DNA from: Eledone cirrhosa
Taxonomy: Eukaryota
DNA length: 64,000 bases
NCBI GenBank assembly: GCA_964016885.1
Contig: OZ024753.1
Location: 32,240,001 to 32,304,000 of the forward strand
Direction: 5' to 3'
Positions within the stretch are counted from its first letter, which is position 1. Every line of letters begins with the position of its first letter. Below the pieces are notes generated by a model. That model did not search any database and was not told the origin of the DNA. It saw only the letters and a program-made list of their open reading frames with translations. The position numbers were made by a program, and so were the translations under genes. Shown piece by piece: positions 4,918 to 49,836 of this stretch.

Positions 4918-4958
<41 letters not shown>

Positions 4959-4961
<3 letters not shown>

Positions 4962-5426
4962 AAAGTTCTATTTAAAATTGTTGGGATACAACAAGTAAAT
5001 ATTTTTATAATTGATATAAAGCACTCGACAAGTATTTGGAGTAGATATACGATATTAATAAATGGAAACTATATTTATAAAACCATATTTATTTCATTAT
5101 ACATATTTCAGGGATACCAAATTAAATTATGGTATGCCTTCATCAGACAAAATACAATATATAACAGTTTTACAAATAAGCTTTGACGTACTCTTTTAAA
5201 ATGCAACCATTATTTTTGGAAGCCATCTGGATAGACCAGACGGCTTCCAGATGGCTTCCAAAAATAATGGTTGCATTTTAAAAGGGTACGTCAAAGCTTA
5301 TTTGTAAAACTGTTATATATTGTATTTTGTCTGATGAAGGCATACCATAATTTAATGTGGTATCCCTGAAATGTGTATAATGAAATAAATATGGTTTTAT
5401 AAATATAGTTTCCATTTATTAATATC

Positions 5427-5430
<4 letters not shown>
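4959..5430. mobile_element. foldback non-autonomous HHR-bearing element (PLE pLTR-like), copy 1
   Basis: Inverted arms ~5048-5231 / ~5247-5430, flanked by (TA)n; HHR on - in the left arm and on + in the right arm. Confidence 0.8.
5323..5387 (+). ncRNA. type I hammerhead ribozyme (mirror copy on - at 5090-5154)
   Basis: TATTTTGT-CTGATGA-AGGcATACCATA..TGTGGTATcCCT-GAAA-TGTGTA-TA^-ATGAAATA; stem I 8 bp with two G.U pairs. Confidence 0.75.
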
Positions 5431-5464
<34 letters not shown>

Positions 5465-5940: not shown

Positions 5941-6097
5941 TTTTTTACGTTGTATGGTTTAACTAATAGGTACCGAGGTTTGTAATCCAGTCACTCCGAT
6001 CAGCAAACCATGATGTAATATGCAAAAGCAACAAATATGAGCTGTAGGAATCATGACTCTCTCTCTCCCTCTCTCTCTATATATATATATATAACTA

Positions 6098-6530
6098 TAT
6101 ACGATATTAAATAAATGGAAACTATATTTATAAAACCTTATTTATTTCATTATATATATTTCAGGGATATCATATTAAAAATATGGTATGCCTTCATCAG
6201 ACAAAATACAATATAAACAGTCTTATAAATAGATAGATTTGACATACCTTACACTTCAACTTCCATTTAAAAAGTTGATTTTTAAATGGAAGTTGAAGTG
6301 TAAGGTATGTCAAATCTATCTATTTATAAGACTGTTTATATTGTATTTTGTCTGATGAAGGCATACCATATTTTTAATATGATATCCCTGAAATATATAT
6401 AATGAAATAAATATGGTTTTATAATTATAGTTTCCATTTATTTAATATCGTAAATATACTCCAAATACTTGTTGTTATAGTTATAAATATTTACTCGTTG
6501 TAACCCAACAATTTAAATAAAACTTTGCAT
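6098..6530. mobile_element. foldback non-autonomous HHR-bearing element, copy 2
   Basis: Inverted arms 6098-~6272 / ~6279-6452; same family as 4959-5430 but with a different centre; 6452-6530 is the reverse complement of 4959-5047. Confidence 0.8.
6344..6409 (+). ncRNA. type I hammerhead ribozyme (mirror copy on - at 6143-6208)
   Basis: TATTTTGT-CTGATGA-stem II-GAAA-TATATA-TA^-ATGAAATA; palindromic stem III. Confidence 0.75.
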
Positions 6531-9571: not shown

Positions 9572-11566
<1,995 letters not shown>

Positions 11567-12330
11567 AGTTTAGCGAGGTTTTTTATATGAAATCGTGTGT
11601 CGAAACAGGTATTGTTATATTTGGGGAGGGTCATATTTGCGTAATATTGCCAGAATTAATACCAGAACACACTCACTGTTTGGTTGGTTTTCGCTTCTCG
11701 CTGTCTTTTATATCTGCGATCTAACTTACTCGGTCCTCAATGTTGCCATTGACTGACCGGCGGTCAAAAATAATAGATACAATATAGACACAAACACATA
11801 TATATAGTTTACATAATTTACATAAATCTTTCGTTGCACATCTGCAACATCGTCAGTGGTGTTATATTCATTGTTCCTCCTGTTGTGTTGTATGTCTACG
11901 CCATTTTTTATTCAGTCTGTCTATATATTTATTTATTTATTTGCTTGTTTGTTTATCTTATTTTATTTTGTCTTCTTTGCGCATGCGTTTGCGTATGTGT
12001 ATAGTGTTATGTGTGATGTGTGACTAGTGTGTATAGTGTTGTGTCTGCTGGGTGACTAGTGTGTGTTTATGTGCTTGTTGTTATTGTGCTTGTGTATGTA
12101 TTTTTTATCTTATTTTATTTTATTTTATTTAGTTATTTATACTTCTCTTAGGTCAGTGTTGTTTGTTTGGGTGTTGTTGTTGTTCCACTCATTCTTTCTG
12201 TTTAGCTTTGGTCTTCTAATTTCCATTTCACTGGCCTCTCTGATTTGCCTATCTGCTGGGTCATTCCTATGTTTAGATATTATTCTAATTTCTATGTTGT
12301 CTATGTTACCGTCATGTTGTTGTCTAGCAT
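11567..12330 (-). mobile_element. 5'-truncated PLE: GIY-YIG C-terminus plus pLTR
   Basis: [49 protein letters not shown] is homologous to 32903-33172; ATGACCCTCCCCAAATATAACAAT terminal motif; HHR core CTGACGA-t-GTTGCAgatgTGCAAC-GAAA at ~11819-11862 (weak stem I). Confidence 0.85.
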
Positions 12331-12392
12331 ATACATATATATATATATATATATATACATATATATATAATATATATATATATAAGTATATG

Positions 12393-12709
<317 letters not shown>

Positions 12710-12710
12710 G

Positions 12711-12805
<95 letters not shown>

Positions 12806-12812
12806 GTATATG

Positions 12813-12992
<180 letters not shown>

Positions 12993-12997
12993 TATAT

Positions 12998-15930
12998 GTT
13001 AAAGATGTACATCCATATATGTATACTGAAATACTAGTATGTATATGAATACACACACGTATACATATGTAGATGTACCAAGTTTTTTTCACTGGTCACT
13101 TTACTGTGAGTGGCCAGCTATTCTGTATGTAAACACACAGACAAACCGGTTTTTAGAGTCATACTGGTTTTTGAGGAAACACCTTTCCTCTATTCTCCAG
13201 AAAGCCAGACAAGGAATATTGAACTAGTTTCGTTGTTGTTACAACTCATCAGCAATATTTACCCATCTTCCGGCCTCTCTAGAGAATCGTAAAAGCACAT
13301 ATCGTTATATGCTTTTTCTATGAAAATTAGTAGTGGGCAGACTAATTTGCATAGAGTGTGAGTAAGTACCGGTTCAACGGAGACGATAAAAACAAATAAC
13401 GAAACGAAATTAAATTTCGTTTCGTTTGTAACTCACTTTTGTATGACTGACGCTTAAACAATTAAGTTAAAGATGTACATCCATATATGTATACTGAAAT
13501 ACTAGTATGTATATGAATACACACACGTATACATATGTAGATGTACCAAGTTTTTTCACTGGTCACTTTACTGTGAGTGGCCAGCTATTCTGTATGTAAA
13601 CACACAGACAAACCGGTTTTTAGAGTCATACTGGTTTTTGAGGAAACACCTTTCCTCTATTCTCCAGAAAGCCAGACAAGGAATATTGAACTAGTTTCGT
13701 TGTTGTTACAACTCATCAGCAATATTTACCCATCTTCCGGCCTCTCTAGAGAATCGTAAAAGCACATATCGTTATATGCTTTTTCTATGAAAATTAGTAG
13801 TGGGCAGACTAATTTGCATAGAGTGTGAGTAAGTACCGGTTCAACGGAGACGATAAAAACAAATAACGAAACGAAATTAAATTTCGTTTCGTTTGTAACT
13901 CACTTTTGTATGACTGACGCTTAAACAATTAAGTTAAAGATGTACATCCATATATGTATACTGAAATACTAGTATGTATATGAATACACACACGTATACA
14001 TATGTAGATGTACCAAGTTTTTTCACTGGTCACTTTACTGTGAGTGGCCAGCTATTCTGTATGTAAACACACAGACAAACCGGTTTTTAGAGTCATACTG
14101 GTTTTTGAGGAAACACCTTTCCTCTATTCTCCAGAAAGCCAGACAAGGAATATTGAACTAGTTTCGTTGTTGTTACAACTCATCAGCAATATTTACCCAT
14201 CTTCCGGCCTCTCTAGAGAATCGTAAAAGCACATATCGTTATATGCTTTTTCTATGAAAATTAGTAGTGGGCAGACTAATTTGCATAGAGTGTGAGTAAG
14301 TACCGGTTCAACGGAGACGATAAAAACAAATAACGAAACGAAATTAAATTTCGTTTCGTTTGTAACTCACTTTTGTATGACTGACGCTTAAACAATTAAG
14401 TTAAAGATGTACATCCATATATGTATACTGAAATACTAGTATGTATATGAATACACACACGTATACATATGTAGATGTACCAAGTTTTTTCACTGGTCAC
14501 TTTACTGTGAGTGGCCAGCTATTCTGTATGTAAACACACAGACAAACCGGTTTTTAGAGTCATACTGGTTTTTGAGGAAACACCTTTCCTCTATTCTCCA
14601 GAAAGCCAGACAAGGAATATTGAACTAGTTTCGTTGTTGTTACAACTCATCAGCAATATTTACCCATCTTCCGGCCTCTCTAGAGAATCGTAAAAGCACA
14701 TATCGTTATATGCTTTTTCTATGAAAATTAGTAGTGGGCAGACTAATTTGCATAGAGTGTGAGTAAGTACCGGTTCAACGGAGACGATAAAAACAAATAA
14801 CGAAACGAAATTAAATTTCGTTTCGTTTGTAACTCACTTTTGTATGACTGACGCTTAAACAATTAAGTTAAAGATGTACATCCATATATGTATACTGAAA
14901 TACTAGTATGTATATGAATACACACACGTATACATATGTAGATGTACCAAGTTTTTTCACTGGTCACTTTACTGTGAGTGGCCAGCTATTCTGTATGTAA
15001 ACACACAGACAAACCGGTTTTTAGAGTCATACTGGTTTAGTCTGCCCACTACTAATTTTCATAGAAAAAGCATATAACGATATGTGCTTTTACGATTCTC
15101 TAGAGAGGCCGGAAGATGGGTAAATATTGCTGATGAGTTGTAACAACAACGAAACTAGTTCAATATTCCTTGTCTGGCTTTCTGGAGAATAGAGGAAAGG
15201 TGTTTCCTCAAAAACCAGTATGACTCTAAAAACCGGTTTGTCTGTGTGTTTACATACAGAATAGCTGGCCACTCACAGTAAAGTGACCAGTGAAAAAACT
15301 TGGTACATCTACATATGTATACGTGTGTGTATTCATATACATACTAGTATTTCAGTATACATATATGGATGTACATCTTTAACTTAATTGTTTAAGCGTC
15401 AGTCATACAAAAGTGAGTTACAAACGAAACGAAATTTAATTTCGTTTCGTTATTTGTTTTTATCGTCTCCGTTGAACCGGTACTTACTCACACTCTATGC
15501 AAATTAGTCTGCCCACTACTAATTTTCATAGAAAAAGCATATAACGATATGTGCTTTTACGATTCTCTAGAGAGGCCGGAAGATGGGTAAATATTGCTGA
15601 TGAGTTGTAACAACAACGAAACTAGTTCAATATTCCTTGTCTGGCTTTCTGGAGAATAGAGGAAAGGTGTTTCCTCAAAAACCAGTATGACTCTAAAAAC
15701 CGGTTTGTCTGTGTGTTTACATACAGAATAGCTGGCCACTCACAGTAAAGTGACCAGTGAAAAAACTTGGTACATCTACATATGTATACGTGTGTGTATT
15801 CATATACATACTAGTATTTCAGTATACATATATGGATGTACATCTTTAACTTAATTGTTTAAGCGTCAGTCATACAAAAGTGAGTTACAAACGAAACGAA
15901 ATTTAATTTCGTTTCGTTATTTGTTTTTAT
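12998..15930. mobile_element. retrozyme-like tandem array A (467-bp monomer), head-to-head inverted
   Basis: ~4.4 near-identical monomers at 12998-15038, then ~1.9 inverted monomers at 15037-15930; one HHR per monomer; (TA)n on both sides. Confidence 0.9.
15123..15167 (+). ncRNA. type I hammerhead ribozyme, family A (also + 15590-15634; - 13215-13259, 13682-13726, 14149-14193, 14616-14660)
   Basis: AATATTG-CTGATGA-GTTGT(AACA)ACAAC-GAAA-CTA-GTT^-CAATATT; perfect stems I and II; palindromic AACTAGTT stem III. Confidence 0.92.
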
Positions 15931-15939
15931 ATATATATG

Positions 15940-15970
<31 letters not shown>

Positions 15971-15989
15971 GTATATATATATATAAATG

Positions 15990-16062
<73 letters not shown>

Positions 16063-16064
16063 GC

Positions 16065-16095
<31 letters not shown>

Positions 16096-16128
16096 AATAT
16101 ATATATATATATGTATATATATATAAAT

Positions 16129-16160
<32 letters not shown>

Positions 16161-16194
16161 GTATATATATATGTATATATATATATATGTATAT

Positions 16195-16708: not shown

Positions 16709-17839
16709 TACTCTTTTACTCTTTTACTCTTTTACCTGTTTCAGCCATCCGGCTGAGGCCATGCTGGGGCACCGCCCTTGTTGCTACACATTTTATCTCC
16801 AGCCTGTATAGGTTGGCCACTGGTGTAGGAGGGAGTTTGTTGCTGCTGCCCTTAGGTTTCCCTCGTGTCTTGCTGTGGGCTCATCCGGGATTCTGGATAA
16901 CAAGGTGTCGAGATGTTTCTTAAAGACATCCACCTCCACGTCATGCAAGTCTCGCAGATGTCTCGGCAGCCTGTTGAAGAGTTGAGGGCCCTTGAATCCC
17001 AGGCTATTGCAATACCTGCTCCTTATTCTAGATGTGGAAGACGGGACCTTTGGCACCACACAGTGACGTCCTGTTCGACGGTTGGTCCAGCTCCCAATGC
17101 CAAAGTTTGGTGCTAGTCCCTCCAGGATTTTCCACATGTAGATCACTGCGTATCTCTCCCGTCTTCGCTCCAAGGAGTAGAGGTTCAGTTCCTTCAGCCT
17201 CTCCCAGTAGCTTGTCTCCCTCATCTTGGCAATCCTCTTGGTGTAGCTTCGCTGGATTGCCCCAAGCTCTGTGGTTAGTTTGACACTATGGGGTGACCAC
17301 AGCTGGGAGCAGTAGTCCAGGCGGCTTAGGACAAAAGTCCTCCACAGTGTCAACATGGTGTCTCGATCTCTTGTAAGGAAAGTCCTCAAGATCCAGCCAG
17401 CGAATCGTCTACATGCTGTCGCCACCTTCATGATGTGTGAAGAAAAAGATGCATCATCGCTCATGTCTATGCCCAGGTCTCGTATCGATTTTGACACGGG
17501 GATATCGGTCCCTCCTGGTCCTGTGTAGCTGTGTTCCGCTATATTTGTGTTTGTGTTTGCAGGTTTGTATTGTAGGGCTTGGAATTTGCCAGCATTAAAC
17601 TGCATGTTGTTTTCTTCCGCCCATCTGTATATGGCATCCAGATCCTGCTGTAAGAGGGCAGCGTCAGCCGGGTTTTTGATTGCCTGTGCTACCTTAGTGT
17701 CATCAGCATAGCTAGTGAGGGATGTTGTTGCATGCACCACAGAGGGCATGTCCAAGAGAGCCACCAAAAACAGTAGTGGTCCCAGGACTGTCCCCTGAGG
17801 CACCCCACTTGTTATCGGTGTTTCCCTCGAGAGGGCCCC
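16709..17839 (-). mobile_element. CR1/L2-group LINE, 5'-truncated ORF2 (16793-17803) with 3' tail
   Basis: [34 protein letters not shown] and [11 protein letters not shown] motifs; open frame to the stop; (AAAAGAGT)n-type tail. Confidence 0.92.
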
Positions 17840-19626: not shown

Positions 19627-19677
19627 AAATATTAAATAAATAATGAATAAACAATTTCTTATATTAAACAAAAAGAG

Positions 19678-19832
19678 TTCATTATTTAACGATCGTTTCT
19701 AGGATATATATGTGTTAGAATTGGTATGCATATTAAACAGATCTATGTACAAAATTATACAAAATTATACAAATTATCAAGATTAAATATACATACCAAA
19801 CACATATATACGCCGTCTTCAGAAATAATGAA
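19678..19832 (-). ncRNA. hammerhead ribozyme with long stem II (left-arm copy)
   Basis: Reverse complement of 30695-30849. Confidence 0.75.
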
Positions 19833-20777
19833 GTATATTTATTGATAATAACAACAATTCAAAATTTCAGGTCCGTTTGGGAACAAAAATTGACCAATGA
19901 AAACACAAAGGGTTAAATGCAGTTCGGTGTGTGTATATACATGTAAAACCCTTACACATATTTTACAAAAATGTATGTATAAAATTGTATACGCATACTA
20001 AAAGGATGGATGCGAACACAAAATTTCAAGGTTAATGTCTCTGTGAGTTATTGACACTTATGAAGTTAAGTATATAAATATATTTTTTCATACTCACACA
20101 TATCCGTACAATCACACATACACGCGCGTATATGCATAAATATACACATAACCACGAACATACAAACACACACACACCCCCACTCACATTTATATATGTG
20201 GATATAAAATCATAAGCACATGGATATTAATTCACTCACATAAAACACTGGCATACACATTTTCAGATCAAGATACAGAAATTAGGTGGGAGGGGGGGGG
20301 GGGTCAGTATTCAACGGTCTGAACAGACTGCCTAATATAAATGTATCTATAAACTAAGAAAAATAAAACAAATAAAACATAATAAATAAAACATTAAGGA
20401 GGAAAGAATAGAAAGAAGAACAGAAAAAAGAAAAAAGAAAAAAGAAAAAAGAAAAAAGAAATATATCAAGAAAATAAATATACACATATACACATACATA
20501 CACATACATATATATATATATATAATATATATATATATATACACACACACATATAAATATATATAAAAAATATATATAAAAAAAAACCTACATATATATA
20601 TACACACATAGACACTTACACATCCATACATAAATATAACACACATATATAAATACATACATACATATAACCACATCCACACTAAGAACATACATACACA
20701 CACATATATAAACATATACATATACACACATACATACATATACACATATACATACAAATACACATACACATATATAT

Positions 20778-20808
<31 letters not shown>

Positions 20809-21134
20809 CACATATATATACATACATATACATATACACGTACATATACACACACATATACATATAATCACACATACTATACAGACACAGATATATATAA
20901 CCACACACATACATGCAAATATATAACACTTACATACTAATATACATACAGATATACACATACATAGCTATATATACACACAAATATATACAGATTTACA
21001 TATATACATACAGACAAATACTTACGCATCTATATATCGGTATATCCATACTAACACCAACTACACTATCACACAACATAGAAATACAAAGAGAAAGGTA
21101 TATACCTATACACACATACATATACAAATAGAAA

Positions 21135-21184
<50 letters not shown>

Positions 21185-21211
21185 TACACATACATATATA
21201 TATACATATAT

Positions 21212-21261
<50 letters not shown>

Positions 21262-21513
21262 TACACATACAAATACACATACATATACATACAGATATAT
21301 ACACATACATACATGTACACACACACAGAAATATATACGCATACATACATACACACATACATATAAAGTCATACACACATATACATCTACACGAACATAC
21401 ACATACACATATATAAAGTATATATACACACACACACACACACGCAACACATACACACATACACATATATATAAAAAAATAAATAATAAAGATATATACA
21501 TATATATATATAT

Positions 21514-21558
<45 letters not shown>

Positions 21559-21930
21559 CATACACACACACCTAAATATACATACACATACATACATACA
21601 TAGACATACATGTACGTACATATACGTACATCGATATACATATATATATATATATACATACACACATAGACATATACATACATACACACACAACTTACAT
21701 ACACACATATATATACATGTATATTCATACATAGAATTAGAAATATAATCATACATACATATGCACTTACTTATAGTCATATATACCAATACATACGCAT
21801 CCATTTATGCGTATATACATAAAAAACACTACAACGTTACCTAACTCAGACATACAAATAAAATATTAATAAAAAGGCATATGTATATACATACACACAC
21901 GCATTAATAGAGATATATATATACACACAT

Positions 21931-22002
<72 letters not shown>

Positions 22003-22116
22003 ACTCATACATATACACATATATATATATATATATATATATACAAAGATACCTACACATTCATACCACCATAAATACACATACAAACACCCACATATAC
22101 ATATATATACACACAC

Positions 22117-22165
<49 letters not shown>

Positions 22166-22284
22166 AAAAACAGACATGCACATATATATATATATTTTTC
22201 TACACTCATATATAGACATATTATATACATATACATAACTTCACTTATACATGCATACACATAAGTTATATTATAATAATAAAA

Positions 22285-22317
<33 letters not shown>

Positions 22318-22346
22318 ACATATATATATATATATATATACATACC

Positions 22347-22394
<48 letters not shown>

Positions 22395-22454
22395 CAAACA
22401 CATACATACACATATACACACATATGAATATAGATATATATTCACACATAGACA

Positions 22455-22511
<57 letters not shown>

Positions 22512-23997
22512 ATATACACAGACACATATACACACTCACATATATATATCTGTGTGCATGCACACACACATATATACATACATACATATATATACACATA
22601 AACACATATATGTGCATACATGCACATACACACACATATATCACATAGATACGGAGATAGACATATAAATAGAGAGACATACATATATATACAACACACA
22701 TACACACACATACATACACACGCATATACATATACATATATATATACATATATATATTCCTATATATACACATAACATATATATATACACATATATACAC
22801 ATACATACACATATACGTACACACATTCACATACACATACATATATAGATGCATATATACATACATATACATACATACACACACTCATATATACACACAC
22901 AATCTTACATTCATATTTGCATGCACATATATGTATTTTTATATTTAGATATAAATACCCAAACCTATATAGACACCTACCTACATATATATTCATACAT
23001 AGACGCTTACAAATACAGATGATAATAGTATGGGGGAAAAGGGGGGGTTTGGAGAAGGGGATCAAAGTAAATATATGTTTCAAGAAACATAGAAAATTTT
23101 CCGTATCTTTATCCAATATATGTTTTTTTTACATATTTTCAGTGTTATAAAATACAACAAATTAAAACTAAGGCAAAATCTATGCATCTCAAAATAAACA
23201 AGTATACCATTAACTATATGTTAACTAAACCAAAGATAGTTAACATATTGATTTCTAAGGTGTAAATTAGTTAGGTTTATAATATTTGAAGCAGAATTTT
23301 GAAGTTAAATAGTAGTAGAGTATTAATTACAGTATAACTAAATTAAAGTTAATAACATTATGGTGTCAATATTAGGAAATGAAATTAGTAATAGGGAAAA
23401 AACAAATAAAATAAAATAAAGTAGTACATCGGTAGTAGAATATAAAATATAGGTTAACTAAATTAAAAATTATATATTTATTTCTATAGTATATGTTAAT
23501 TAGGTATACAATACATAAAGCAGATATTGTATTTCATCAATAGCATAATATAATTATATGCAAATAGAAATCAAAATTAATACGCATACATATACATATA
23601 CATACACATACACATATACACACATATACACACAAATATATATATATATATATATACATATATATACATATACATACACACACACATACACATACACATA
23701 CACATATACATATACATATCTTTTTCAAAAAATTGCATAGAATATATTAACTAGGTATATATCCAAAACACATCGCATTCTATGATTACATGACATTCTG
23801 CAATTCGTCTGTATAAGGATACTAATATTAAGCAAATTAAAATTAAATTTTTAGGTTGATTAAAACTAAAATCAAATTATAAATATATTTCTAAAATGTA
23901 TATTAATTAGGTCAATAATACTAAAAATTATTTCTCTGTCATTGGAACCTCCTTAAAAAACATACCAATACCTTCTAAGGATGACTTCTTACTCCTT

Positions 23998-26367
23998 ATG
24001 ATTCAGAAAACTAATAATTTTATCAGAAGGGTTAGATGGAGAGCCTACCACTTCGATAGAAAATCTATACAAGCAGATCGGAAATATATGTATGATTTCA
24101 ATACTTACAAGAATCCACCACACAACTTTTTACTTGAAGACTTCGAGAAAGACCTTTTTAATTTAATTAAACACCTCAAATTTAAAAAGTATAAATCCGT
24201 CTTTCAAAAGGACCTTGATTCTACCCTATTGGACCTAAAAAAGTCTAAAAAAATCCATGTCCACTCGGACAAAACTGGTAACTTGTATCATATGGACATT
24301 GAACATTATAACGAGTTCATATATAAAGAACTCAGAAAAAATTATAAAAAATCTAATAATGTGTCACTCACCAACATCAACAACAAAACACACAACATAG
24401 TAAAAAAACTAAACATTGAAGATAGAACTGAACCTTTGGCATTGAAAAGACCACACTTCAACCTGAAAGATCACAAATCTAACTTTAACTCAAATCCTTC
24501 TATTAGACTTATATGTCCTTCCAAATCAGATATTGGAATAATTAGCAAAAAAATTTTAGATAGAGTCATCCCACAAATAAAAAAACACGTTATTTTACCA
24601 CTCTGGGAAAACACCTCCCAGGTAATTAACTGGTTTAAAAATATTAGGTGTAAATCTTCTGCTTCTTTCCTACAATTTGATATAGATAATTACTATTCTT
24701 CTATATCACCTATACTCCTGAACAAAGCATTGATATTTGCTAAAAATAGATCTAACTTAACTTTGGATGACATTAACATTATTACACATGCTAGACTAAC
24801 ACTTATTGAATTTCAGAATGAATACTGGACCAGAAACACATACAGTAATCTTTTTGATATTACTATGGGTTCAAGTGATTCCGCCCAAATTACTGATCTT
24901 GTGGGCCTCTTTCTCCTTTTCAACATAAATGCCTCTTTTCCCCACCTCAAAGGTGGTTTATATCGTGATGACTGTCTTCTTCTTTCTAACAACCTTAGCC
25001 TTTCAGAAATTGAAAAAAACAAAAAACATATTAGAACTTTCCTTAAAGACTATTATAATCTTAATATTACTTTTGAAAAAACAAGTAAAGTAGTAAATTT
25101 CCTAGATATAACTTTAGATTTAGCTACGGGTATCTACCAACCTTACCATAAACCTAACCAAAACTTACATTACATACACTCACAATCTAATCACCCTAAA
25201 TCTATCCTTAAAAACCTTGCATATAATATATCACTTAGAATTTCTAACCTTTCTTCTAACCAAGATGTATTTGATAAAAATGCGACCTTCTATAACGAAG
25301 CTCTAGATAGAAGTGGCCACAAAAATAGATTAGAGTATATACCTTCTACTAAAAATACTGAAAGCATGCAACATAATATTACCAACAAACACCAAATGAA
25401 AAGTACACACCTAAATGCCACCCACACTATACCCCAAAATACCAAATCTTCTAATATAAAGTATAGTAACTCTCAAAAAACTACTCATCATACAACTCTA
25501 ATAAATATTAATAATAAAACTCCTAATAAAAAAGATAAAACACCTAAATCTAAAAATATAACTAAAAATAGTTGTGGTGAGATCATTAACATTAATCCTC
25601 CTAGTAAAAATCACGATACAACCTATAAAAATAATAAAAATAATAAACAACATAGAAACCGTAATAGACGGGTTACTTGGTATAATGCTCCTTTTAATTT
25701 ACAAGTTAAGGATAATATTGCTAAAAAATTTTTTTATATCCTTGAGAAAAACTTCCCGCCAAACCACAAATACCATCAAATCTTAAATAGGTCTACAGTT
25801 AAATTCTCATACTCTACAACAAATAACATAAAACAAAATATAAGTGCATATAATGCATATAAATGTAAGAAAACCATAACTATACCACCAGTACATCAAA
25901 TTAACCATAATATCTCCTCAAATACAGAATTAACGAAAGGATGTAACTGTAGAAACAAAGCAAACTGCCCATTAAAAGGGAATTGTCTTGTTAACAACAT
26001 AGTCTATAAATGTAATGTTAAAACTAAAGATTCTATTTGCTCATATATAGGAGCTACCTCTAACAATTTTAAGACAAGGTTTAATACCCACAAGCATAGT
26101 TTTAAAAATGCTGCACTGGCTAATACAACATCTCTAGCTGAAAAAATCAATAGTTATAAAAATAAGAATATAAAATATGATTTGACCTGGAGTGTGCTCA
26201 AAAGAGCCACCCCTTATCAAAATAATAGAAATGAATGTAGATTATGTTCCCAAGAACTATTTGAAATAATGAAGTCTAAGGATATCTTATTAAATAAACG
26301 ACAGGAATTAATTATATCGTGTAATCATAAACTAAAAAAAACATTTAAATATTATAAACCTAATTAA
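23998..26367 (+). CDS. Penelope-like RT plus GIY-YIG endonuclease (Naiad-type), 789 aa
   Basis: DKT, FDI..YYSSI, MG, YRDD, FLD, PYHKPN..SNHP; CxCx5C (CNCRNKANC); IVYKC..YIG; C-terminal CRLC; an in-frame SLKNIP motif lies just upstream of the first ATG. Confidence 0.93.
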   Translation: MIQKTNNFIRRVRWRAYHFDRKSIQADRKYMYDFNTYKNPPHNFLLEDFEKDLFNLIKHLKFKKYKSVFQKDLDSTLLDLKKSKKIHVHSDKTGNLYHMDIEHYNEFIYKELRKNYKKSNNVSLTNINNKTHNIVKKLNIEDRTEPLALKRPHFNLKDHKSNFNSNPSIRLICPSKSDIGIISKKILDRVIPQIKKHVILPLWENTSQVINWFKNIRCKSSASFLQFDIDNYYSSISPILLNKALIFAKNRSNLTLDDINIITHARLTLIEFQNEYWTRNTYSNLFDITMGSSDSAQITDLVGLFLLFNINASFPHLKGGLYRDDCLLLSNNLSLSEIEKNKKHIRTFLKDYYNLNITFEKTSKVVNFLDITLDLATGIYQPYHKPNQNLHYIHSQSNHPKSILKNLAYNISLRISNLSSNQDVFDKNATFYNEALDRSGHKNRLEYIPSTKNTESMQHNITNKHQMKSTHLNATHTIPQNTKSSNIKYSNSQKTTHHTTLININNKTPNKKDKTPKSKNITKNSCGEIININPPSKNHDTTYKNNKNNKQHRNRNRRVTWYNAPFNLQVKDNIAKKFFYILEKNFPPNHKYHQILNRSTVKFSYSTTNNIKQNISAYNAYKCKKTITIPPVHQINHNISSNTELTKGCNCRNKANCPLKGNCLVNNIVYKCNVKTKDSICSYIGATSNNFKTRFNTHKHSFKNAALANTTSLAEKINSYKNKNIKYDLTWSVLKRATPYQNNRNECRLCSQELFEIMKSKDILLNKRQELIISCNHKLKKTFKYYKPN

Positions 26368-28045
26368 CAACATTATTTTTGAAATTAATTTAATTTAAAT
26401 GTTAGTTAACCTATATATTTAATTTAATTAAAATTTTATTACAGATCAGAATATAAAATATTATGTAATCATAAATTGTGAAAAACCTTTAAATATTACT
26501 AATATATACTTAGTAATTTAATTTATAGATTAATTTTAATTTATTTAAACCTTTTATTATTTTTATTATAATTCTTTTACAGATAAAATATAACAAAATA
26601 ATATCGTGTATCCAATGACAGAGAAATAATTTTTAGTATTATTGACCTAATTAATATACATTTTAGAAATATATTTATAATTTGATTTTAGTTTTAATCA
26701 ACCTAAAAATTTAATTTTAATTTGCTTAATATTAGTATCCTTATACAGACGAATTGCAGAATGTCATGTAATCATAGAATGCGATGTGTTTTGGATATAT
26801 ACCTAGTTAATATATTCTATGCAATTTTTTGAAAAAGATATGTATATGTATATGTGTATGTGTATGTGTATGTGTGTGTGTATGTATATGTATATATATG
26901 TATATATATATATATATATATTTGTGTGTATATGTGTGTATATGTGTATGTGTATGTATATGTATATGTATGCGTATTAATTTTGATTTCTATTTGCATA
27001 TAATTATATTATGCTATTGATGAAATACAATATCTGCTTTATGTATTGTATACCTAATTAACATATACTATAGAAATAAATATATAATTTTTAATTTAGT
27101 TAACCTATATTTTATATTCTACTACCGATGTACTACTTTATTTTATTTTATTTGTTTTTTCCCTATTACTAATTTCATTTCCTAATATTGACACCATAAT
27201 GTTATTAACTTTAATTTAGTTATACTGTAATTAATACTCTACTACTATTTAACTTCAAAATTCTGCTTCAAATATTATAAACCTAACTAATTTACACCTT
27301 AGAAATCAATATGTTAACTATCTTTGGTTTAGTTAACATATAGTTAATGGTATACTTGTTTATTTTGAGATGCATAGATTTTGCCTTAGTTTTAATTTGT
27401 TGTATTTTATAACACTGAAAATATGTAAAAAAAACATATATTGGATAAAGATACGGAAAATTTTCTATGTTTCTTGAAACATATATTTACTTTGATCCCC
27501 TTCTCCAAACCCCCCCTTTTCCCCCATACTATTATCATCTGTATTTGTAAGCGTCTATGTATGAATATATATGTAGGTAGGTGTCTATATAGGTTTGGGT
27601 ATTTATATCTAAATATAAAAATACATATATGTGCATGCAAATATGAATGTAAGATTGTGTGTGTATATATGAGTGTGTGTATGTATGTATATGTATGTAT
27701 ATATGCATCTATATATGTATGTGTATGTGAATGTGTGTACGTATATGTGTATGTATGTGTATATATGTGTATATATATATGTTATGTGTATATATAGGAA
27801 TATATATATGTATATATATATGTATATGTATATGCGTGTGTATGTATGTGTGTGTATGTGTGTTGTATATATATGTATGTCTCTCTATTTATATGTCTAT
27901 CTCCGTATCTATGTGATATATGTGTGTGTATGTGCATGTATGCACATATATGTGTTTATGTGTATATATATGTATGTATGTATATATGTGTGTGTGCATG
28001 CACACAGATATATATATGTGAGTGTGTATATGTGTCTGTGTATAT

Positions 28046-28100
<55 letters not shown>

Positions 28101-28160
28101 TGTCTATGTGTGAATATATATCTATATTCATATGTGTGTATATGTGTATGTATGTGTTTG

Positions 28161-28204
<44 letters not shown>

Positions 28205-28233
28205 GGTATGTATATATATATATATATATATGT

Positions 28234-28266
<33 letters not shown>

Positions 28267-28385
28267 TTTTATTATTATAATATAACTTATGTGTATGCAT
28301 GTATAAGTGAAGTTATGTATATGTATATAATATGTCTATATATGAGTGTAGAAAAATATATATATATATGTGCATGTCTGTTTTT

Positions 28386-28426
<41 letters not shown>

Positions 28427-28540
28427 GTGTGTGTATATATATGTATATGTGGGTGTTTGTATGTGTATTTATGGTGGTATGAATGTGTAGGTATCTTTGT
28501 ATATATATATATATATATATATGTGTGTATATGTATGAGT

Positions 28541-28610
<70 letters not shown>

Positions 28611-28982
28611 ATGTGTGTATATATATATCTCTATTAATGCGTGTGTGTATGTATATACATATGCCTTTTTATTAATATTTTATTTGTATGTCTGAGTTAG
28701 GTAACGTTGTAGTGTTTTTTATGTATATACGCATAAATGGATGCGTATGTATTGGTATATATGACTATAAGTAAGTGCATATGTATGTATGATTATATTT
28801 CTAATTCTATGTATGAATATACATGTATATATATGTGTGTATGTAAGTTGTGTGTGTATGTATGTATATGTCTATGTGTGTATGTATATATATATATATA
28901 TGTATATCGATGTACGTATATGTACGTACATGTATGTCTATGTATGTATGTATGTGTATGTATATTTAGGTGTGTGTGTATG

Positions 28983-29027
<45 letters not shown>

Positions 29028-29278
29028 ATATATATATATATGTATATATCTTTATTATTTATTTTTTTATATATATGTGTATGTGTGTATGTGTTGCGTG
29101 TGTGTGTGTGTGTATATATATCTTTATATATGTGTATGTGTATGTTCGTGTAGATGTATATGTGTGTATGACTTTATATGTATGTGTGTATGTATGTATG
29201 CGTATATATTTCTGTGTGTGTGTACATGTATGTATGTGTATATATCTGTATGTATATGTATGTGTATTTGTATGTGTA

Positions 29279-29326
<48 letters not shown>

Positions 29327-29353
29327 ATATATGTATATATATATGTATGTGTA

Positions 29354-29405
<52 letters not shown>

Positions 29406-29731
29406 TTTCTATTTGTATATGTATGTGTGTATAGGTATATACCTTTCTCTTTGTATTTCTATGTTGTGTGATAGTGTAGTTGGTGTTAGTATGGATATAC
29501 CGATATATAGATGCGTAAGTATTTGTCTGTATGTATATATGTAAATCTGTATATATTTGTGTGTATATATAGCTATGTATGTGTATATCTGTATGTATAT
29601 TAGTATGTAAGTGTTATATATTTGCATGTATGTGTGTGGTTATATATATCTGTGTCTGTATAGTATGTGTGATTATATGTATATGTGTGTGTATATGTAC
29701 GTGTATATGTATATGTATGTATATATATGTG

Positions 29732-29762
<31 letters not shown>

Positions 29763-29987
29763 ATATATATGTGTATGTGTATTTGTATGTATATGTGTAT
29801 ATGTATGTATGTGTGTATATGTATATGTTTATATATGTGTGTGTATGTATGTTCTTAGTGTGGATGTGGTTATATGTATGTATGTATTTATATATGTGTG
29901 TATATTTATGTATGGATGTGTAAGTGTCTATGTGTGTATATATATATGTAGGTTTTTTTTTATATATATTTTTTATATATATTTATA

Positions 29988-30036
<49 letters not shown>

Positions 30037-30694
30037 ATGTATGTGTATATGTGTATATTTATTTTCTTGATATATTTCTTTTTTCTTTTTTCTTTTTTCT
30101 TTTTTCTGTTCTTCTTTCTATTCTTTCCTCCTTAATGTTTTATTTATTATGTTTTATTTGTTTTATTTTTCTTAGTTTATAGATACATTTATATTAGGCA
30201 GTCTGTTCAGACCGTTGAATACTGACCCCCCCCCCCTCCCACCTAATTTCTGTATCTTGATCTGAAAATGTGTATGCCAGTGTTTTATGTGAGTGAATTA
30301 ATATCCATGTGCTTATGATTTTATATCCACATATATAAATGTGAGTGGGGGTGTGTGTGTGTTTGTATGTTCGTGGTTATGTGTATATTTATGCATATAC
30401 GCGCGTGTATGTGTGATTGTACGGATATGTGTGAGTATGAAAAAATATATTTATATACTTAACTTCATAAGTGTCAATAACTCACAGAGACATTAACCTT
30501 GAAATTTTGTGTTCGCATCCATCCTTTTAGTATGCGTATACAATTTATACATACATTTTTGTAAAATATGTGTAAGGGTTTTACATGTATATACACACAC
30601 CGAACTGCATTTAACCCTTTGTGTTTTCATTGGTCAATTTTTGTTCCCAAACGGACCTGAAATTTTGAATTGTTGTTATTATCAATAAATATAC

Positions 30695-30849
30695 TTCATT
30701 ATTTCTGAAGACGGCGTATATATGTGTTTGGTATGTATATTTAATCTTGATAATTTGTATAATTTTGTATAATTTTGTACATAGATCTGTTGAATATGCA
30801 TACCAATTCTAACACATATATATCCTAGAAACGATCGTTAAATAATGAA
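30695..30849 (+). ncRNA. type I hammerhead ribozyme with ~116-nt stem II
   Basis: TTCATTATTT-CTGAAGA-[30712-30827]-GAAA-CGATC-GTT^-AAATAATGAA; 10-bp perfect stem I; AACGATCGTT palindrome. Confidence 0.78.
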
Positions 30850-31035
30850 CTCTTTTTGTTTAATATAAGAAATTGTTTATTCATTATTTATTTAATATTT
30901 TATCTTGTACTCTGTATACCGTTTATCTTTCACCGAAAGTGGTTTTTCATTACATCTCTTCTTTCCATGATATCCGGAATACATTGAGTTCTTCATACGG
31001 ATTGGACACTACCGTAAACTCTTGGTAGATTTATC

Positions 31036-31287
<252 letters not shown>

Positions 31288-31657: not shown

Positions 31658-33560
31658 TATTAATTACCTAGACACATATGACCTTAGCAACCTGTGCCCT
31701 ACAAGACCAGCAAGAGGCAGACCACCTACCATTACCCCAATGGCCAAGAAAACCCACACAGATAGATGGAACGGGTGGACCAAAGCCATACGGACACCCG
31801 AAAACCACGATGAACTAAATAAAATGATTGCACATGCGGTGGGGGGCCAGCATAAAATTAACCCTTAAGGAACATATGTTCAAATTTAATGGAAAAACAT
31901 ATGCCCAAGAGGAAGGAGCAGCCATTGGTGTTAGCATTGCAGGCGACATAGCTAACTTATTCATGGTATGGTGGTACAGTAGACTTAAACTTAAACTTAA
32001 ATAACAATTAGAAGACCCCTTAACCCTGATAATGTACTCCCGCTACGTTGATGATATAAACATTGTAGTTAAAACACCCCCACTAGAGAACGGTCAGGAA
32101 CTAGAGAAAAACACAATGGAGTGCATCCAGCAAATAGCTAACTCCATCCACCAGAGTATTAGAGTTACTATAGACTACCCAAGTAAATACCCCAACCATC
32201 GATTACCTGTACTAGACACAGAGCTCTGGTTAGATACCATTAATAACAAAAAACAAATCCTCCATTCCCATTATGCCAAACCCATGACTTCCAAATATCT
32301 GATCCACCGAAACTCAGCTGTTTCGGACCATACCAAAATCAACATACTGATTGCGGATTTGGTACGGGTGATGAGAAACGTGTCCCGCATGTGCAACGCC
32401 GAAGAACTAGAGAGACACATACAACACTTCATCCACCGTATGCAGTTCTCTGGTTACAATCAGAGAGATAAAATCAGAGTGTATTGAGGAGTTGAACCAA
32501 ATGGGAAAAAATAGTAAATAATGACACAAATGGGACCTGCCCCTTGTATAGGAGCAAATTTTGGAATAGAATAGAAAGAACTAGGAATAAGGCTAATAGA
32601 ATAAACTCATGGTATGATAGCAATAAATACCAGAGTGTAATGTTCATCGATACAACCCCTAGAGTTGAATTAGCTTACAAATTTAGAAGGGCCCTAGATA
32701 AACATAAACTCAATATTAAGATAGTAGAAAGACCAGGTACCTCCGTAAAAACATTTATTAGCAAGACATACCATTTTCAAAGACCCCCCTATATAGATAA
32801 GAAATGTATAATCTGTAAATTAAGCCCCCATATTAACTGTAAAACTAGAAATGTAGTATATAGAATAAGATGTACTGAAGGACAAATAGAGACAAAAATA
32901 TAGTGTACATAGGTGAGACAGCTCGTAGTGTTGGGGAACGGATAAATGAACACTGGCGAGACCTTCAAGATAGTAAAGAATCATCTGTACTCTACCTACA
33001 TGCTAAAATAGAATATAAGGGTAAATTAGAGAACATAGAAATAAAAATAGAATCTACACACAGAAAAGACGCAATGTTTAGACAAATCACAGAGGCAATA
33101 AACATAAAAGAATTACAACCAAAATTAAATAGAAAACATGAGTGGAACAGCAACATCACAACTTACAATTAAGGACAAAATGAAAACACACACGCACATA
33201 GAACAAACAACCAACCTGTAACATGTAAATATACAAATAAATAAACGAATATAAACACACAGACACCCGGATGTGGCGCATGCGCAGACGGAGCACACAA
33301 CACACACACAGAAACAAAATGGCGTAAGACAGAACAAAGGAGAGGCACAAAAACAAAGAAAAAAATCCCCCAGTCACTGAAGAAGTCACAGAATGTGTGA
33401 CGAAAGAACTTTGACAATATATAAACAACCATCGGTTGTGGAACCAACCAACCAACCGCAAATTTATAAATTCCTGAATTTATAAATTTATTATAATAAC
33501 TTGAAGTGAAAGCTACTGGCGCGTGTGTTTCTTATTGGCAACATGACCCTCCCAAAGTAT

Positions 33561-33566
<6 letters not shown>
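31654..33566 (+). pseudogene. second PLE (Neptune-like): RT 3' half, GIY-YIG and pLTR, with stops/frameshifts
   Basis: FKFNGKTYAQEEGAAIG, RYVDD, LPVLD, CIIC..CKTRNVVYRIRC..YIGETARS..ERINEH. Confidence 0.9.
33373..33415 (+). ncRNA. minimal hammerhead ribozyme in PLE pLTR
   Basis: GTCA-CTGAAGA-a-GTCACA(GAATG)TGTGAC-GAAA-GAA-CTT^-TGAC. Confidence 0.75.
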
Positions 33567-33626
<60 letters not shown>

Positions 33627-40608: not shown

Positions 40609-40738
40609 ACTCATGTACACCCACAAACGTCAATATATATGGCGAATATATCCTTATTATACTTGTATATATATATATATACAAGTATAATAAGGATATA
40701 TTCGCCATATATATTGACAGTTGTGGGTGTACATGAGT
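40609..40738. repeat. 130-bp near-perfect palindrome centred on (TA)n
   Basis: ACTCATGTACACCCACAA...TTGTGGGTGTACATGAGT. Confidence 0.9.
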
Positions 40739-45496: not shown

Positions 45497-46085
45497 CTGC
45501 TGTCAAGGGTGGGACCGATCCGGTTGACCACCGAGTCTATTGTAATGATCAAGCCGCCTCCCCCCTTCAAAGATGAAGCAGAGGCGGTGTTTCTGTGCGT
45601 AATAGCCATGGCGAAAGAGGTTGTATGGTGGACGCGTCTGAAAGGACTGAGGTCAGGCACCTTTCTCTCTGGCCAACAACTGGTCCGTTTCTTCCGATAT
45701 CATTTCGGAAGAAGGATCAGGATGGAGAGAGAGGTGCTGCACCCCAGCCGTTTCTATGAAAGATGGGTGAAAGTGGCGAGAATGGCCCGTGTGAATGGGC
45801 CTTCACTCTACATCAGACTATAGGTGAGGAAGATGAAAGACCAAGGGAGCACCCCTTCTCTGTGCTCCTGAGGAGAAGGGTTGCACACTTTTTTCGGGGG
45901 TGTGTGCGACCCCCCAAGGCGCCTCCTCTCTATTGAGGATTTTGTTAAAAATTTTATTTTTTGTTATATCTTATTTTATTTTTATATTTTGTTATTGCCT
46001 CCTCCTTATTGAGGACGCCTTTTTGTGTAAACTCCCCCCTTTGTACTTGTCCCACTTTTGATGCCCTAGTGGCAAATAAAAGAAA
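45497..46085 (+). mobile_element. Tx1/L1-type LINE 3' end
   Basis: AKEVVWWTRLK...FYERW ORF2 C-terminus (45509-45823), 3' UTR and AATAAA at 46075-46080. Confidence 0.75.
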
Positions 46086-46180: not shown

Positions 46181-46256
<76 letters not shown>

Positions 46257-47074: not shown

Positions 47075-49836
47075 ATAAATTGAAACAAAATGAAAACGAA
47101 ATTTCATTTCTCACTCTTAGTATGGCACTTACTTAAATGTAAGTATGCATGTGTACGTACATACATATATGTATACAGACGTACAGTAGCATGCACATAT
47201 ATATATATATATACATATATACATACATATGCATACAGGTACACATACATATATGCACGTATCAGTTTAGCGGCGCTAACGTCGCTTTGTTCGTTTGTAA
47301 ACAAACTGAACAGCCTGAATTTATGCCATACGGTGTTAAGGCAACCACGTCACCTTTTTGTTCAACACTGACACAGGAACGATGTACTAGTTTCAAGCTT
47401 GTTAGCTATCATCAGCACCGTTTACCCATCTGCCAGATAGTTGAACGTTCGAAAGTATATACTTTCCTTATGAAAATTAACGGCTGAGCAGCCTAATTTG
47501 CATATTGAGTGAGTTAAATCGGTCAGGCATACCGAAAACGATAAATTGAAACAAAATGAAAACGAAATTTCATTTCTCACTCTTAGTATGGCACTTACTT
47601 AAATGTAAGTATGCATGTGTACGTACATACATATATGTATACAGACGTACAGTAGCATGCACATATATATATATATATACATATATACATACATATGCAT
47701 ACAGGTACACATACATATATGCACGTATCAGTTTAGCGGCGCTAACGTCGCTTTGTTCGTTTGTAAACAAACTGAACAGCCTGAATTTATGCCATACGGT
47801 GTTAAGGCAACCACGTCACCTTTTTGTTCAACACTGACACAGGAACGATGTACTAGTTTCAAGCTTGTTAGCTATCATCAGCACCGTTTACCCATCTGCC
47901 AGATAGTTGAACGTTCGAAAGTATATACTTTCCTTATGAAAATTAACGGCTGAGCAGCCTAATTTGCATATTGAGTGAGTTAAATCGGTCAGGCATACCG
48001 AAAACGATAAATTGAAACAAAATGAAAACAAAATTTCATTTCTCACTCTTAGTATGGCACTTACTTAAATGTAAGTATGCATGTGTACGTACATACATAT
48101 ATGTATACAGACGTACAGTAGCATGCACATATATATATATATATACATATATACATACATATGTATACAGGTACACATACATATATGCACGTATCAGTTT
48201 AGCGGCGCTAACGTCGCTTTGTTCGTTTGTAAACAAACTGAAGAGCCTGAATCATAAATTCAGGCTGTTCAGTTTGTTTACAAACGAACAAAGCGACGTT
48301 AGCGCCGCTAAACTGATACGTGCATATATGTATGTGTACCTGTATACATATGTATGTATATATGTATATATATATATATATGTGCATGCTACTGTACGTC
48401 TGTATACATATATGTATGTACGTACACATGCATACTTACATTTAAGTAAGTGCCATACTAAGAGTGAGAAATGAAATTTCGTTTTCATTTTGTTTCAATT
48501 TATCGTTTTCGGTATGCCTGACCGATTTAACTCACTCAATATGCAAATTAGGCTGCTCAGCCGTTAATTTTCATAAGGAAAGTATATACTTTCGAACGTT
48601 CAACTATCTGGCAGATGGGTAAACGGTGCTGATGATAGCTAACAAGCTTGAAACTAGTACATCGTTCCTGTGTCAGTGTTGAACAAAAAGGTGACGTGGT
48701 TGCCTTAACACCGTATGGCATAAATTCAGGCTGTTCAGTTTGTTTACAAACGAACAAAGCGACGTTAGCGCCGCTAAACTGATACGTGCATATATGTATG
48801 TGTACCTGTATGCATATGTATGTATATATGTATATATATATATATATGTGCATGCTACTGTACGTCTGTATACATATATGTATGTACGTACACATGCATA
48901 CTTACATTTAAGTAAGTGCCATACTAAGAGTGAGAAATGAAATTTCGTTTTCATTTTGTTTCAATTTATCGTTTTCGGTATGCCTGACCGATTTAACTCA
49001 CTCAATATGCAAATTAGGCTGCTCAGCCGTTAATTTTCATAAGGAAAGTATATACTTTCGAACGTTCAACTATCTGGCAGATGGGTAAACGGTGCTGATG
49101 ATAGCTAACAAGCTTGAAACTAGTACATCGTTCCTGTGTCAGTGTTGAACAAAAAGGTGACGTGGTTGCCTTAACACCGTATGACATAAATTCAGGCTGT
49201 TCAGTTTGTTTACAAACGAACAAAGCGACGTTAGCGCCGCTAAACTGATACGTGCATATATGTATGTGTACCTGTATGCATATGTATGTATATATGAATA
49301 TATATATATATATGTGCATGCTACTGTACGTCTGTATACATATATGTATGTACGTACACATGCATACTTACATTTAAGTAAATGCCATACTAAGAGTGAG
49401 AAATGAAATTTCGTTTTCATTTTGTTTCAATTTATCGTTTTCGGTATGCCTGACCGATTTAACTCACTCAATATGCAAATTAGGCTGCTCAGCCGTTAAT
49501 TTTCATAAGGAAAGTATATACTTTCGAACGTTCAACTATCTGGCAGATGGGTAAACGGTGCTGATGATAGCTAACAAGCTTGAAACTAGTACATCGTTCC
49601 TGTGTCAGTGTTGAACAAAAAGGTGACGTGGTTGCCTTAACACCGTATGGCATAAATTCAGGCTGTTCAGTTTGTTTACAAACGAACAAAGCGACGTTAG
49701 CGCCGCTAAACTGATACGTGCATATATGTATGTGTACCTGTATGCATATGTATGTATATATGTATATATATATATATATGTGCATGCTACTGTACGTCTG
49801 TATACATATATGTATGTACGTACACATGCATACTTA
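47075..49836. mobile_element. retrozyme-like tandem array B (466-bp monomer), head-to-head inverted
   Basis: ~2.5 monomers at 47075-48252, then ~3.4 inverted monomers at 48253-49836; HHR per monomer; within (TA)n. Confidence 0.9.
48622..48666 (+). ncRNA. type I hammerhead ribozyme, family B (also + 49088-49132, 49554-49598; - 47378-47422, 47844-47888)
   Basis: AACGGTG-CTGATGA-tAGCT(AACA)AGCTt-GAAA-CTA-GTA^-CATCGTT. Confidence 0.9.

Follow-up and report, generated by a model that had tools for sequence, protein, structure and literature searches.

We analysed a 64,000-nucleotide stretch of Eledone cirrhosa DNA (assembly GCA_964016885.1, contig OZ024753.1, positions 32,240,001 to 32,304,000 of the forward strand; hereafter the window, position 1 being its first letter) that holds two non-coding tandem arrays, A and B, with a hammerhead ribozyme in every unit. 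Tandem Repeats Finder called two arrays of 467-bp units at A and two of 466-bp units at B, all between (TA)n tracts, and in each case the two form the arms of one inverted structure. An initial annotation, made from the letters alone, had taken array ends lying out of register with the ribozyme cut site as a sign of rolling-circle reverse transcription. Monomers are numbered here from the first base 3′ of the predicted hammerhead cut (position 1), and the two places on the monomer at which the outer ends fall are called site 1 and site 2. The arrays and the flanks of A are laid out as follows:

12329..12997: (TA)n left flank of A, with G interruptions on the plus strand (31 G, 2 C)
12998..15038, minus strand: A left arm, 4.37 copies of the 467-nt unit with the RNA sense leftward; inner end at 52, outer end at 223 (short, site-1 end)
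15037..15038: A inversion junction, head-to-head, with a 2-nt TT overlap; the inner ends are 292 nt apart on the monomer
15037..15930, plus strand: A right arm, 1.91 units; inner end at 344, outer end at 303 (tailed, site-2 end)
15851..15930, plus strand: A tail, between site 1 (223; the population site, 234, is 15861) and site 2 (303), at the right end only
15931..16194: (TA)n right flank of A, with G interruptions on the plus strand (13 G, 1 C)
47075..48252, minus strand: B left arm, 2.53 copies of the 466-nt unit; inner end at 65, outer end at 310 (tailed end; tail 47075-47139)
48253..49836, plus strand: B right arm, 3.40 units; inner end at 60, outer end at 245 (short end)

Both pairs of arms are head-to-head with their RNA 3′ sides facing outward, each left arm having its hammerhead cores on the minus strand and each right arm on the plus strand. 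As the initial annotation had noted, no arm is an integer multiple of its unit. The centre of B is a near-perfect palindrome around a 5-nt spacer (48253-48257). Identity between the A and B monomers is 58-65%, varying with the aligner, and neither array codes for protein: the open reading frames (ORFs) of at least 120 amino acids that touch A are (TA)n read-throughs only, and GC content is ~0.34. A self-comparison of the window found no terminal repeats in A or B beyond the arms themselves.

The flanks of B are interrupted by TT on the plus strand on both sides of the array. Since the interruptions lie on one strand on both sides of A, and likewise of B, each pair of flanks represents one pre-existing microsatellite and no mirrored artefact. 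A target-site duplication was not discernible, because the target is itself (TA)n; PMC8557442 makes the same point. A ~100-nt unique segment within (TA)n is directly repeated around B (46085-46258 and 50140-50315; 94% over 176 nt). These copies lie 300-800 nt from the array ends, do not adjoin the array on the left, and form no simple target-site duplication.

Every unit carries a type I hammerhead

Each unit contains the CUGAUGA...GAAA core of a type I hammerhead, with six cores in A and five in B. Those of A lie at:

15112..15183 and 15579-15650, plus strand: predicted cut after GUU at 15160/15627
13199-13270, 13666-13737, 14133-14204 and 14600-14671, minus strand: predicted cut at 13222/13689/14156/14623

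Stem III of the A hammerhead is the palindrome ACUAGU. Against Rfam RF02275 (Hammerhead_HH9) the A core scored 36 bits (E 1e-6), short of the gathering score of 52; the B core had no Rfam match at E 0.001, though it retains the hammerhead core, and at gathering scores the window had no Rfam matches. Matches to miRNA families at permissive E-values were discarded as TA-rich hairpin noise. Between the A and B hammerheads, which are two sequences only, 6 of 13 pairs differ in both partners, and pairing is kept in 25 of 26 cells.

Animal non-LTR (long terminal repeat) retrozymes were defined in PMC7229834, which proposes that primed circular RNA is copied into tandem cDNA with Penelope-like elements (PLEs) as the likely mobilisers, and which reports that related animal retrozymes accumulate as circles. 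A later study ties retrozymes to the pseudo-LTRs (pLTRs) of PLEs by co-occurrence and phylogeny (bioRxiv 10.64898/2026.07.22.740005). A and B share with the elements of both sources their non-coding tandem units, a type I hammerhead in each unit, a GC content <45%, few units per array, and the presence of PLEs in the genome. The unit of 466-467 nt is just above the range of 150-450 bp given in PMC7229834 and inside that of 51-972 bp given in bioRxiv 10.64898/2026.07.22.740005. Unlike the described animal retrozymes, A and B are head-to-head pairs in (TA)n with PLE tail ends. As circles, the monomers are predicted to fold very stably (z -10.8 and -7.6, with 40 shuffles for each). By sequence criteria, A and B are non-LTR retrozymes bearing the integration marks of PLEs, with predicted cleavage and circularisation.

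The outer ends of the arrays fall at two fixed sites

None of the eight arm ends lies within 50 nt of the hammerhead cut, the nearest being 52 nt away, as the initial annotation had stated in general terms. Eight random ends would all miss the cut by >5 nt in 83% of cases, so this absence counts only against templates that end at the cut. The annotation had also stressed that the arms end at differing monomer positions, which holds within one array; across A and B, however, the outer ends pair at two homologous sites. A303 and B310 occupy the same column in all three MAFFT modes, at the sequence TTTAT/CGT (slash, end position). A223 and B245 are 18 columns apart in two modes and 11 in the third; when folded, both lie in a small hairpin common to the two monomers (A 223-236, B 240-255), immediately ahead of a closing stem that they also have in common. 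Measured from the anchor in this stem, the offsets are -25 for A223, -14 for A234, and -22 to -20 for B243-245. Because MAFFT is inconsistent in this region, we based the homology of site 1 on the stem anchor and the folded hairpin, and computed p-values from the worse alignment. With that alignment, a double match this close has a chance probability of 0.006-0.017 when positions are drawn uniformly or from TA sites. Site 1 is a window of ~11 nt, and site 2 is exact. Three of the four inner ends lie at 52-65, but we claim no clustering there, as the two B ends are not independent.

A family survey aligned 4 of 24 listed sequencing runs to one A monomer; 20 of the 24 contain part of the monomer, with no RNA run listed among them, which says nothing about expression. 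In run X1, 1087 contigs aligned, 57 of them only partly, in identity classes of 546/362/163/16, indicating a dispersed multi-copy family (depth here is not copy number). Ten of 44 loose-end rows were listed, six from X1 (22 contigs) and four from run X5. Among the listed X1 rows, 12 contigs pass into (TA)n at 15463, which is monomer 303 and exactly the right end of A, and 4 contigs do so at 15394, monomer 234, in the same small hairpin and 11 nt past the A-left end. The other four listed X1 rows look like diverged monomer sequence, and none of those listed ends at the cut site. Even if each of the 34 unlisted rows were a scattered TA junction, a count of 12 in 50 at the site specified in advance would have p of 1e-10 to 2e-5. 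Run X5 contributed 10 contigs and four listed loose ends, none into (TA)n.

Two further observations concern the A family itself. About 8% of the X1 depth has C for T at 15160, the base preceding the cut (GUC vs GUU), a change that is generally compatible with hammerhead activity. At least half the words of the A monomer (15060-15526) were found in 9 runs under 7 organism codes, X1 and X5 being the two of these that were aligned, and the family may thus be shared among several species.

The initial annotation had drawn on AT/TA microhomology at the outer ends. Overlaps with (TA)n of 3, 3 and 2 nt are indeed present at A-right, B-left and B-right, with 0 nt at A-left. This evidence is weak, as two of the three positive ends are the same homologous site and the frequency is near background (19-23% of monomer positions give at least 2 nt). 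The TT at the A centre is likewise present as described, but an overlap of at least 2 nt is expected in 18% of all possible junctions, and the B centre has no microhomology. We therefore dropped microhomology as evidence.

Units are homogeneous within each array

Array A has no substitutions and a single homopolymer indel across 2933 nt, whereas the family in X1 is polymorphic, with 541 of 1087 contigs <99% identical and 11 listed variable sites. Identity within the locus is thus far higher than across the family, a comparison that the initial annotation had proposed and that supports an RNA-templated origin in one step. Every A unit carries the letter that is in the minority in X1 at 15118 (85% other) and at 15365 (62% other); uniformity that extends to minority letters indicates that both A arms derive from one haplotype.

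The arms of A and B together cross 11 cut sites, with no variant within 58 nt of any of them. Scar-free crossing of all 11, and no inner end at a cut, indicate a template that was continuous across the ribozyme site, either a ligated circle or an uncut multimer. Units alike apart from private errors and a scar-free ligation site are what rolling-circle copying predicts; both are also expected from a young linear multimer.

Array B has seven substitutions. Five are private to one unit (each in 1 of 5-7 copies) and recur in no other unit, which argues against stepwise expansion at the DNA level. Three variants of the right arm, at 931-1129 nt from the centre, have no counterpart in register on the left and so are not template variants; they speak neither for nor against a linear multimer as template. 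By contrast, a substitution at monomer 153 occurs in both arms at mirror positions, 48164 and 48346, with 88 nt between it and the 5-nt spacer on either side, which points to the innermost part of one arm having been copied from the other. The short spacers of 5, 14 and 5 nt in B and in two further elements of the window, C and D, suggest the same.

Each palindromic hammerhead element of the window pairs a short with a tailed end

In addition to A and B, the window contains three palindromic elements with hammerheads, C, D and E, the last of which encodes a PLE protein:

4958..5432: element C in (TA)n, two head-to-head arms of one hammerhead each around a 14-nt spacer; the left arm extends 140 nt past the cut (tailed), the right arm 50-53 nt (short)
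6096..6529: element D, related to C, with a 5-nt spacer; the left arm extends ~52-55 nt past the cut (short), the right arm 128 nt (tailed)
19627..31038: element E, Hydra-type PLE in (TA)n; inverted 4.3-kb copy of the 3′ region (to ~23946), then ORF, 3′ region and hammerhead
23998..26367, plus strand: PLE ORF P0001 in E, 789 amino acids from the first in-frame ATG; reverse transcriptase (RT; YRDD) and C-terminal GIY-YIG

C and D end at the same two sequence sites. The hammerheads of E lie at 30705 (plus) and 19822 (minus), with the left end short (~60 nt past the cut) and the right end tailed (~200 nt), and an alignment of its two arms over 4282 nt contains 3 substitutions and 12 gaps; E appears to be a young Hydra-type PLE insertion. 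A scan of P0001 against the Hydra-clade motifs of PMC8557442 (section 11) found RWR, DKT, CxCx5C, CxxC and CxH. The ORF is probably 5′-truncated, as its frame is open upstream across the inversion junction. Its protein-atlas neighbours carry GIY-YIG, RVT_1 and HTH_animal; P0001 itself had no Pfam match at the cut-off and nothing significant among solved structures. With the Hydra clade, E shares the C-terminal GIY-YIG, RW[R/K], DKT, CxCx5C, CxxC and CxH motifs, a hammerhead and a (TA)n target (PMC8557442, section 11). Unlike Hydra elements, which are generally <3 kb (PMC8557442), it has an unusually long, microsatellite-rich 3′ region of 4.5 kb, and the stem II region of its type I hammerhead is very long (~115 nt). 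The short-end motif of C and D resembles that of E by eye, and C and D may be Hydra-type 3′ ends or derivatives of them.

All five palindromic hammerhead elements (A-E) have one short and one tailed end. Were the two arms to choose their ends independently, this would arise with p of 0.007-0.03 (small n, three families). The tails measure 65-80 nt in A and B, ~75-90 nt in C and D, and ~140 nt in E, vs 30-40 bp in published PLEs (PMC3846280, PMC8557442).

A probable PLE-type route with two fixed starts

The ends, orientation and target of A and B are those of PLEs with an endonuclease (EN+ PLEs). Poseidon PAc initiates internally at two sites that bound the tail, with both target strands extended and a dimer predicted (PMC11167929). 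Inverted head-to-head PLE copies with a 30-40-bp tail at one end, (TA)n targeting, and palindromic junctions read as self-priming are described in PMC3846280 and PMC8557442, the tail being on one of two inverted head-to-head pLTRs with palindromic junctions in PMC3846280. A and B share with these elements a head-to-head, inverted, 5′-truncated copy, a tail at one end, an AT-rich or (TA)n target, palindromic junctions (PMC3846280, PMC8557442, PMC11167929), and starts that lie in a stem-loop downstream of an uncut hammerhead. A and B differ from them in being non-coding and in having a multimer in each arm. We consider it highly probable that A and B entered (TA)n by such a target-primed route with fixed starts.

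We propose that a PLE protein with RT and GIY-YIG domains would bind the structured region 220-310 nt past the cut and nick both (TA)n strands. Each target 3′ end would then prime internally, one at site 1 (a small CTTAA/TAAG hairpin) and one at site 2 (TTTAT/CGT), aided by 0-3 nt of TA pairing. The RT would pass several ribozyme sites, most simply by travelling round a ligated monomer circle, and stop at variable inner positions. Finally, the products would be joined head-to-head, probably by one cDNA folding back and its sense strand annealing to the other cDNA. Such a join would account for spacers of 5-14 nt in B, C and D, for the variant mirrored in B, and for the TT overlap of A.

How far the circle itself can be argued is more finely balanced. 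Rolling-circle copying from the two fixed starts is, as judged from the sequence, an even proposition overall, and within the fixed-start route a circle is modestly favoured over a linear template. Arguments for a circle are the uniform units of A, the cut sites crossed free of scars, the stable predicted circular folds, the extra step by which a linear template would have to gain units, and the RNA circles of related animal retrozymes. We hold a more specific version only tentatively, in which a PLE RT-endonuclease dimer on one fixed structure of a circular ribozyme RNA may prime at both sites and roll from both, giving head-to-head multimers in one step. What survives of the initial annotation is an RNA-templated, one-step origin through uncut ribozyme sites; the out-of-register ends from which it had argued do not diagnose a circle, as C, D and E share the offset.

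Several observations weigh against rolling copies of a circle from fixed starts. The arms of C, D and E have a single ribozyme and also end 50-200 nt past the cut. The weak palindromic stem III resembles that of amphibian ribozymes that cleave poorly as monomers and leave RNA multimers (PMC7229834). In vitro, ribozyme-dead PLE RNA inserts equally well, unprocessed RNA is the main substrate, and the two start sites show no strand bias (PMC11167929), whereas the two arms use different sites in all five window elements. The mirrored variant of B is in 2 of 7 copies of its position, which a monomer circle alone cannot give. At site 1, the A-left outer end stops 11 nt short of the X1 junction and has no microhomology. 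The X1 support consists of contigs, not loci or reads, with 10 of the 44 loose-end rows listed, and X1 may derive either from the sample behind the window or from a different species. Strand-change joints were not listed in the aligned runs, and the raw-read runs X22 and X23 had 0 reads aligned and so provide no test. Finally, an autonomous partner did not emerge in the window, where the blastn matches listed for the A and B monomers outside the arrays are (TA)-rich only; we saw no sequence link between E and either array, and so regard E as a candidate for the type of mobiliser rather than as a demonstrated partner.

We also considered other ways of making inverted arms. In L1 twin priming, two target-primed cDNAs give arms that are adjacent, non-overlapping parts of one RNA. 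A and B resemble its products in being inverted with the 3′ ends outward, but their arms overlap in sequence and each inner end lies 121-216 nt from the other arm's outer end; because the position prediction fails by this distance, we rejected an L1-type origin. Formation of the whole second arm by pure fold-back would need site-specific termination, as the tailed arm is the shorter in both A and B, and we retain fold-back for the centre only. Template jumping between cleaved monomers is disfavoured by the absence of inner ends (0 of 4) and of scars at the 11 cut sites.

Alternative origins of the arrays

The strongest alternative keeps the same PLE machinery and two fixed starts, and takes as template an uncut linear multimer transcribed through an existing young array, as in the partial tandems of ordinary PLEs. 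Units would be gained by occasional template jumps or by insertion into the element's own copies. The substrate that PLEs mainly use in vitro is unprocessed multi-copy RNA (PMC11167929), dimer and trimer RNAs are known for ribozymes with a weak stem III (PMC7229834), and C, D and E share the same end offsets. The inner ends of B (60 and 65) and its mirrored variant fit two cDNAs that both reached the same 5′ unit of one RNA. Such copying could not by itself raise the unit number, so that some separate gain step would be needed in addition to a homogeneous source array, and all 6.3 units of A are identical within a polymorphic family. On balance we regard a linear template as a realistic possibility, though less probable than a circle.

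In a second scenario, about one unit per arm was inserted by a PLE-type route, and slippage or unequal crossing-over of the DNA enlarged the arrays afterwards; bioRxiv 10.64898/2026.07.22.740005 mentions both rolling-circle and DNA-level (satellite) expansion. This would also give non-integer arms that keep the original insertion ends, and C and D demonstrate that single-unit palindromes exist. Yet the graded divergence by which, according to the initial annotation, such expansion would be recognised is not seen, none of five unmirrored B variants recurs in another unit, and a full unit that can be duplicated must already be present. The lack of substitutions in A leaves almost no time for four expansions, and we find this scenario improbable.

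Entry into a circle at arbitrary AT-rich points by (TA)n microhomology, as the initial annotation had it, would accommodate the non-integer arms, the 2-3 nt of TA microhomology at three of the four outer ends, and the ~11-nt variation of site 1. Outer ends nonetheless fall repeatedly at two homologous sites, in A and B, in the X1 contigs and in C and D, which is the fixed-end pattern that the annotation had itself named as evidence against it and the known start-site and tail signature of PLEs (PMC11167929, PMC8557442, PMC3846280). With microhomology near its 19-23% background, arbitrary entry is largely refuted and, in our judgement, very improbable.

An assembly or fold-back read artefact behind the palindromes, unit numbers or homogeneity is equally improbable: tandem and inverted repeats are hard to assemble, no locus-spanning read was seen and no inversion joint was listed, but the flank interruptions are on one strand on both sides (G on plus at A, TT on plus at B), the two arms are unlike in length and in end site, some variants of B are specific to single units, and the X1 contigs independently show both end sites.

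Other features of the window

Single-armed 3′ fragments of another PLE type, each with a GIY-YIG C-terminus and a hammerhead-like core and ending in (TA)n, lie at 11560-12330 (minus) and 32900-33620 (plus). By eye the two appear to differ, one stopping at a shared motif and the other extending ~40 nt in a tail-like manner; the fragment at 11560-12330 adjoins the left (TA)n flank of A. Further palindromes at 58705-59036, 40609-40738 and 60574-60748 had no hammerhead core that we could find. The first of these is a head-to-head pair of a ~186-bp dispersed repeat that is also present at 1312, 39347, 54840, 55129, 57869, 59203, 59535 and 60285. Two similar segments containing CTGATGA, at 3718 (minus) and 58320 (plus), are possibly degenerate hammerhead elements, and isolated hammerhead cores lie at 51781 (minus) and 58136 (plus). 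A 336-amino-acid ORF at 16793-17803 (minus) looks by eye like a fragment of a LINE-type (long interspersed nuclear element) reverse transcriptase, with a YADD-like motif near 17700.

Implications for retrozymes and PLEs

Each ingredient of the proposed route has been published already, and we regard the combination as moderately surprising. The literature searched, with incomplete coverage of subscription papers and supplements, yielded no description of inverted, tailed retrozyme multimers; the word 'inverted' is absent from the main text of PMC7229834, and array ends are not treated in the accessible text of bioRxiv 10.64898/2026.07.22.740005. The case for mobilisation of retrozymes by PLEs has so far been built on co-occurrence and on similarity to pLTRs. 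In A and B, the footprint of integration is itself seen on retrozyme arrays, in the form of two start sites, a one-sided tail, head-to-head arms and a (TA)n target.

The start sites are conserved between families only ~60% alike, which delimits a small cis element (~90 nt) and a 467-nt substrate. A and B could therefore be useful for asking whether PLE RTs copy circles repeatedly and how the inversions and tails of PLEs form, and the pairing of one short with one tailed end in five of five elements offers a concrete prediction for the PLE mechanism. If coupled rolling from two sites is true, such arrays would be genomic records of rolling-circle reverse transcription, and the tails and inversions of PLEs would stem from coupled initiation on two strands.

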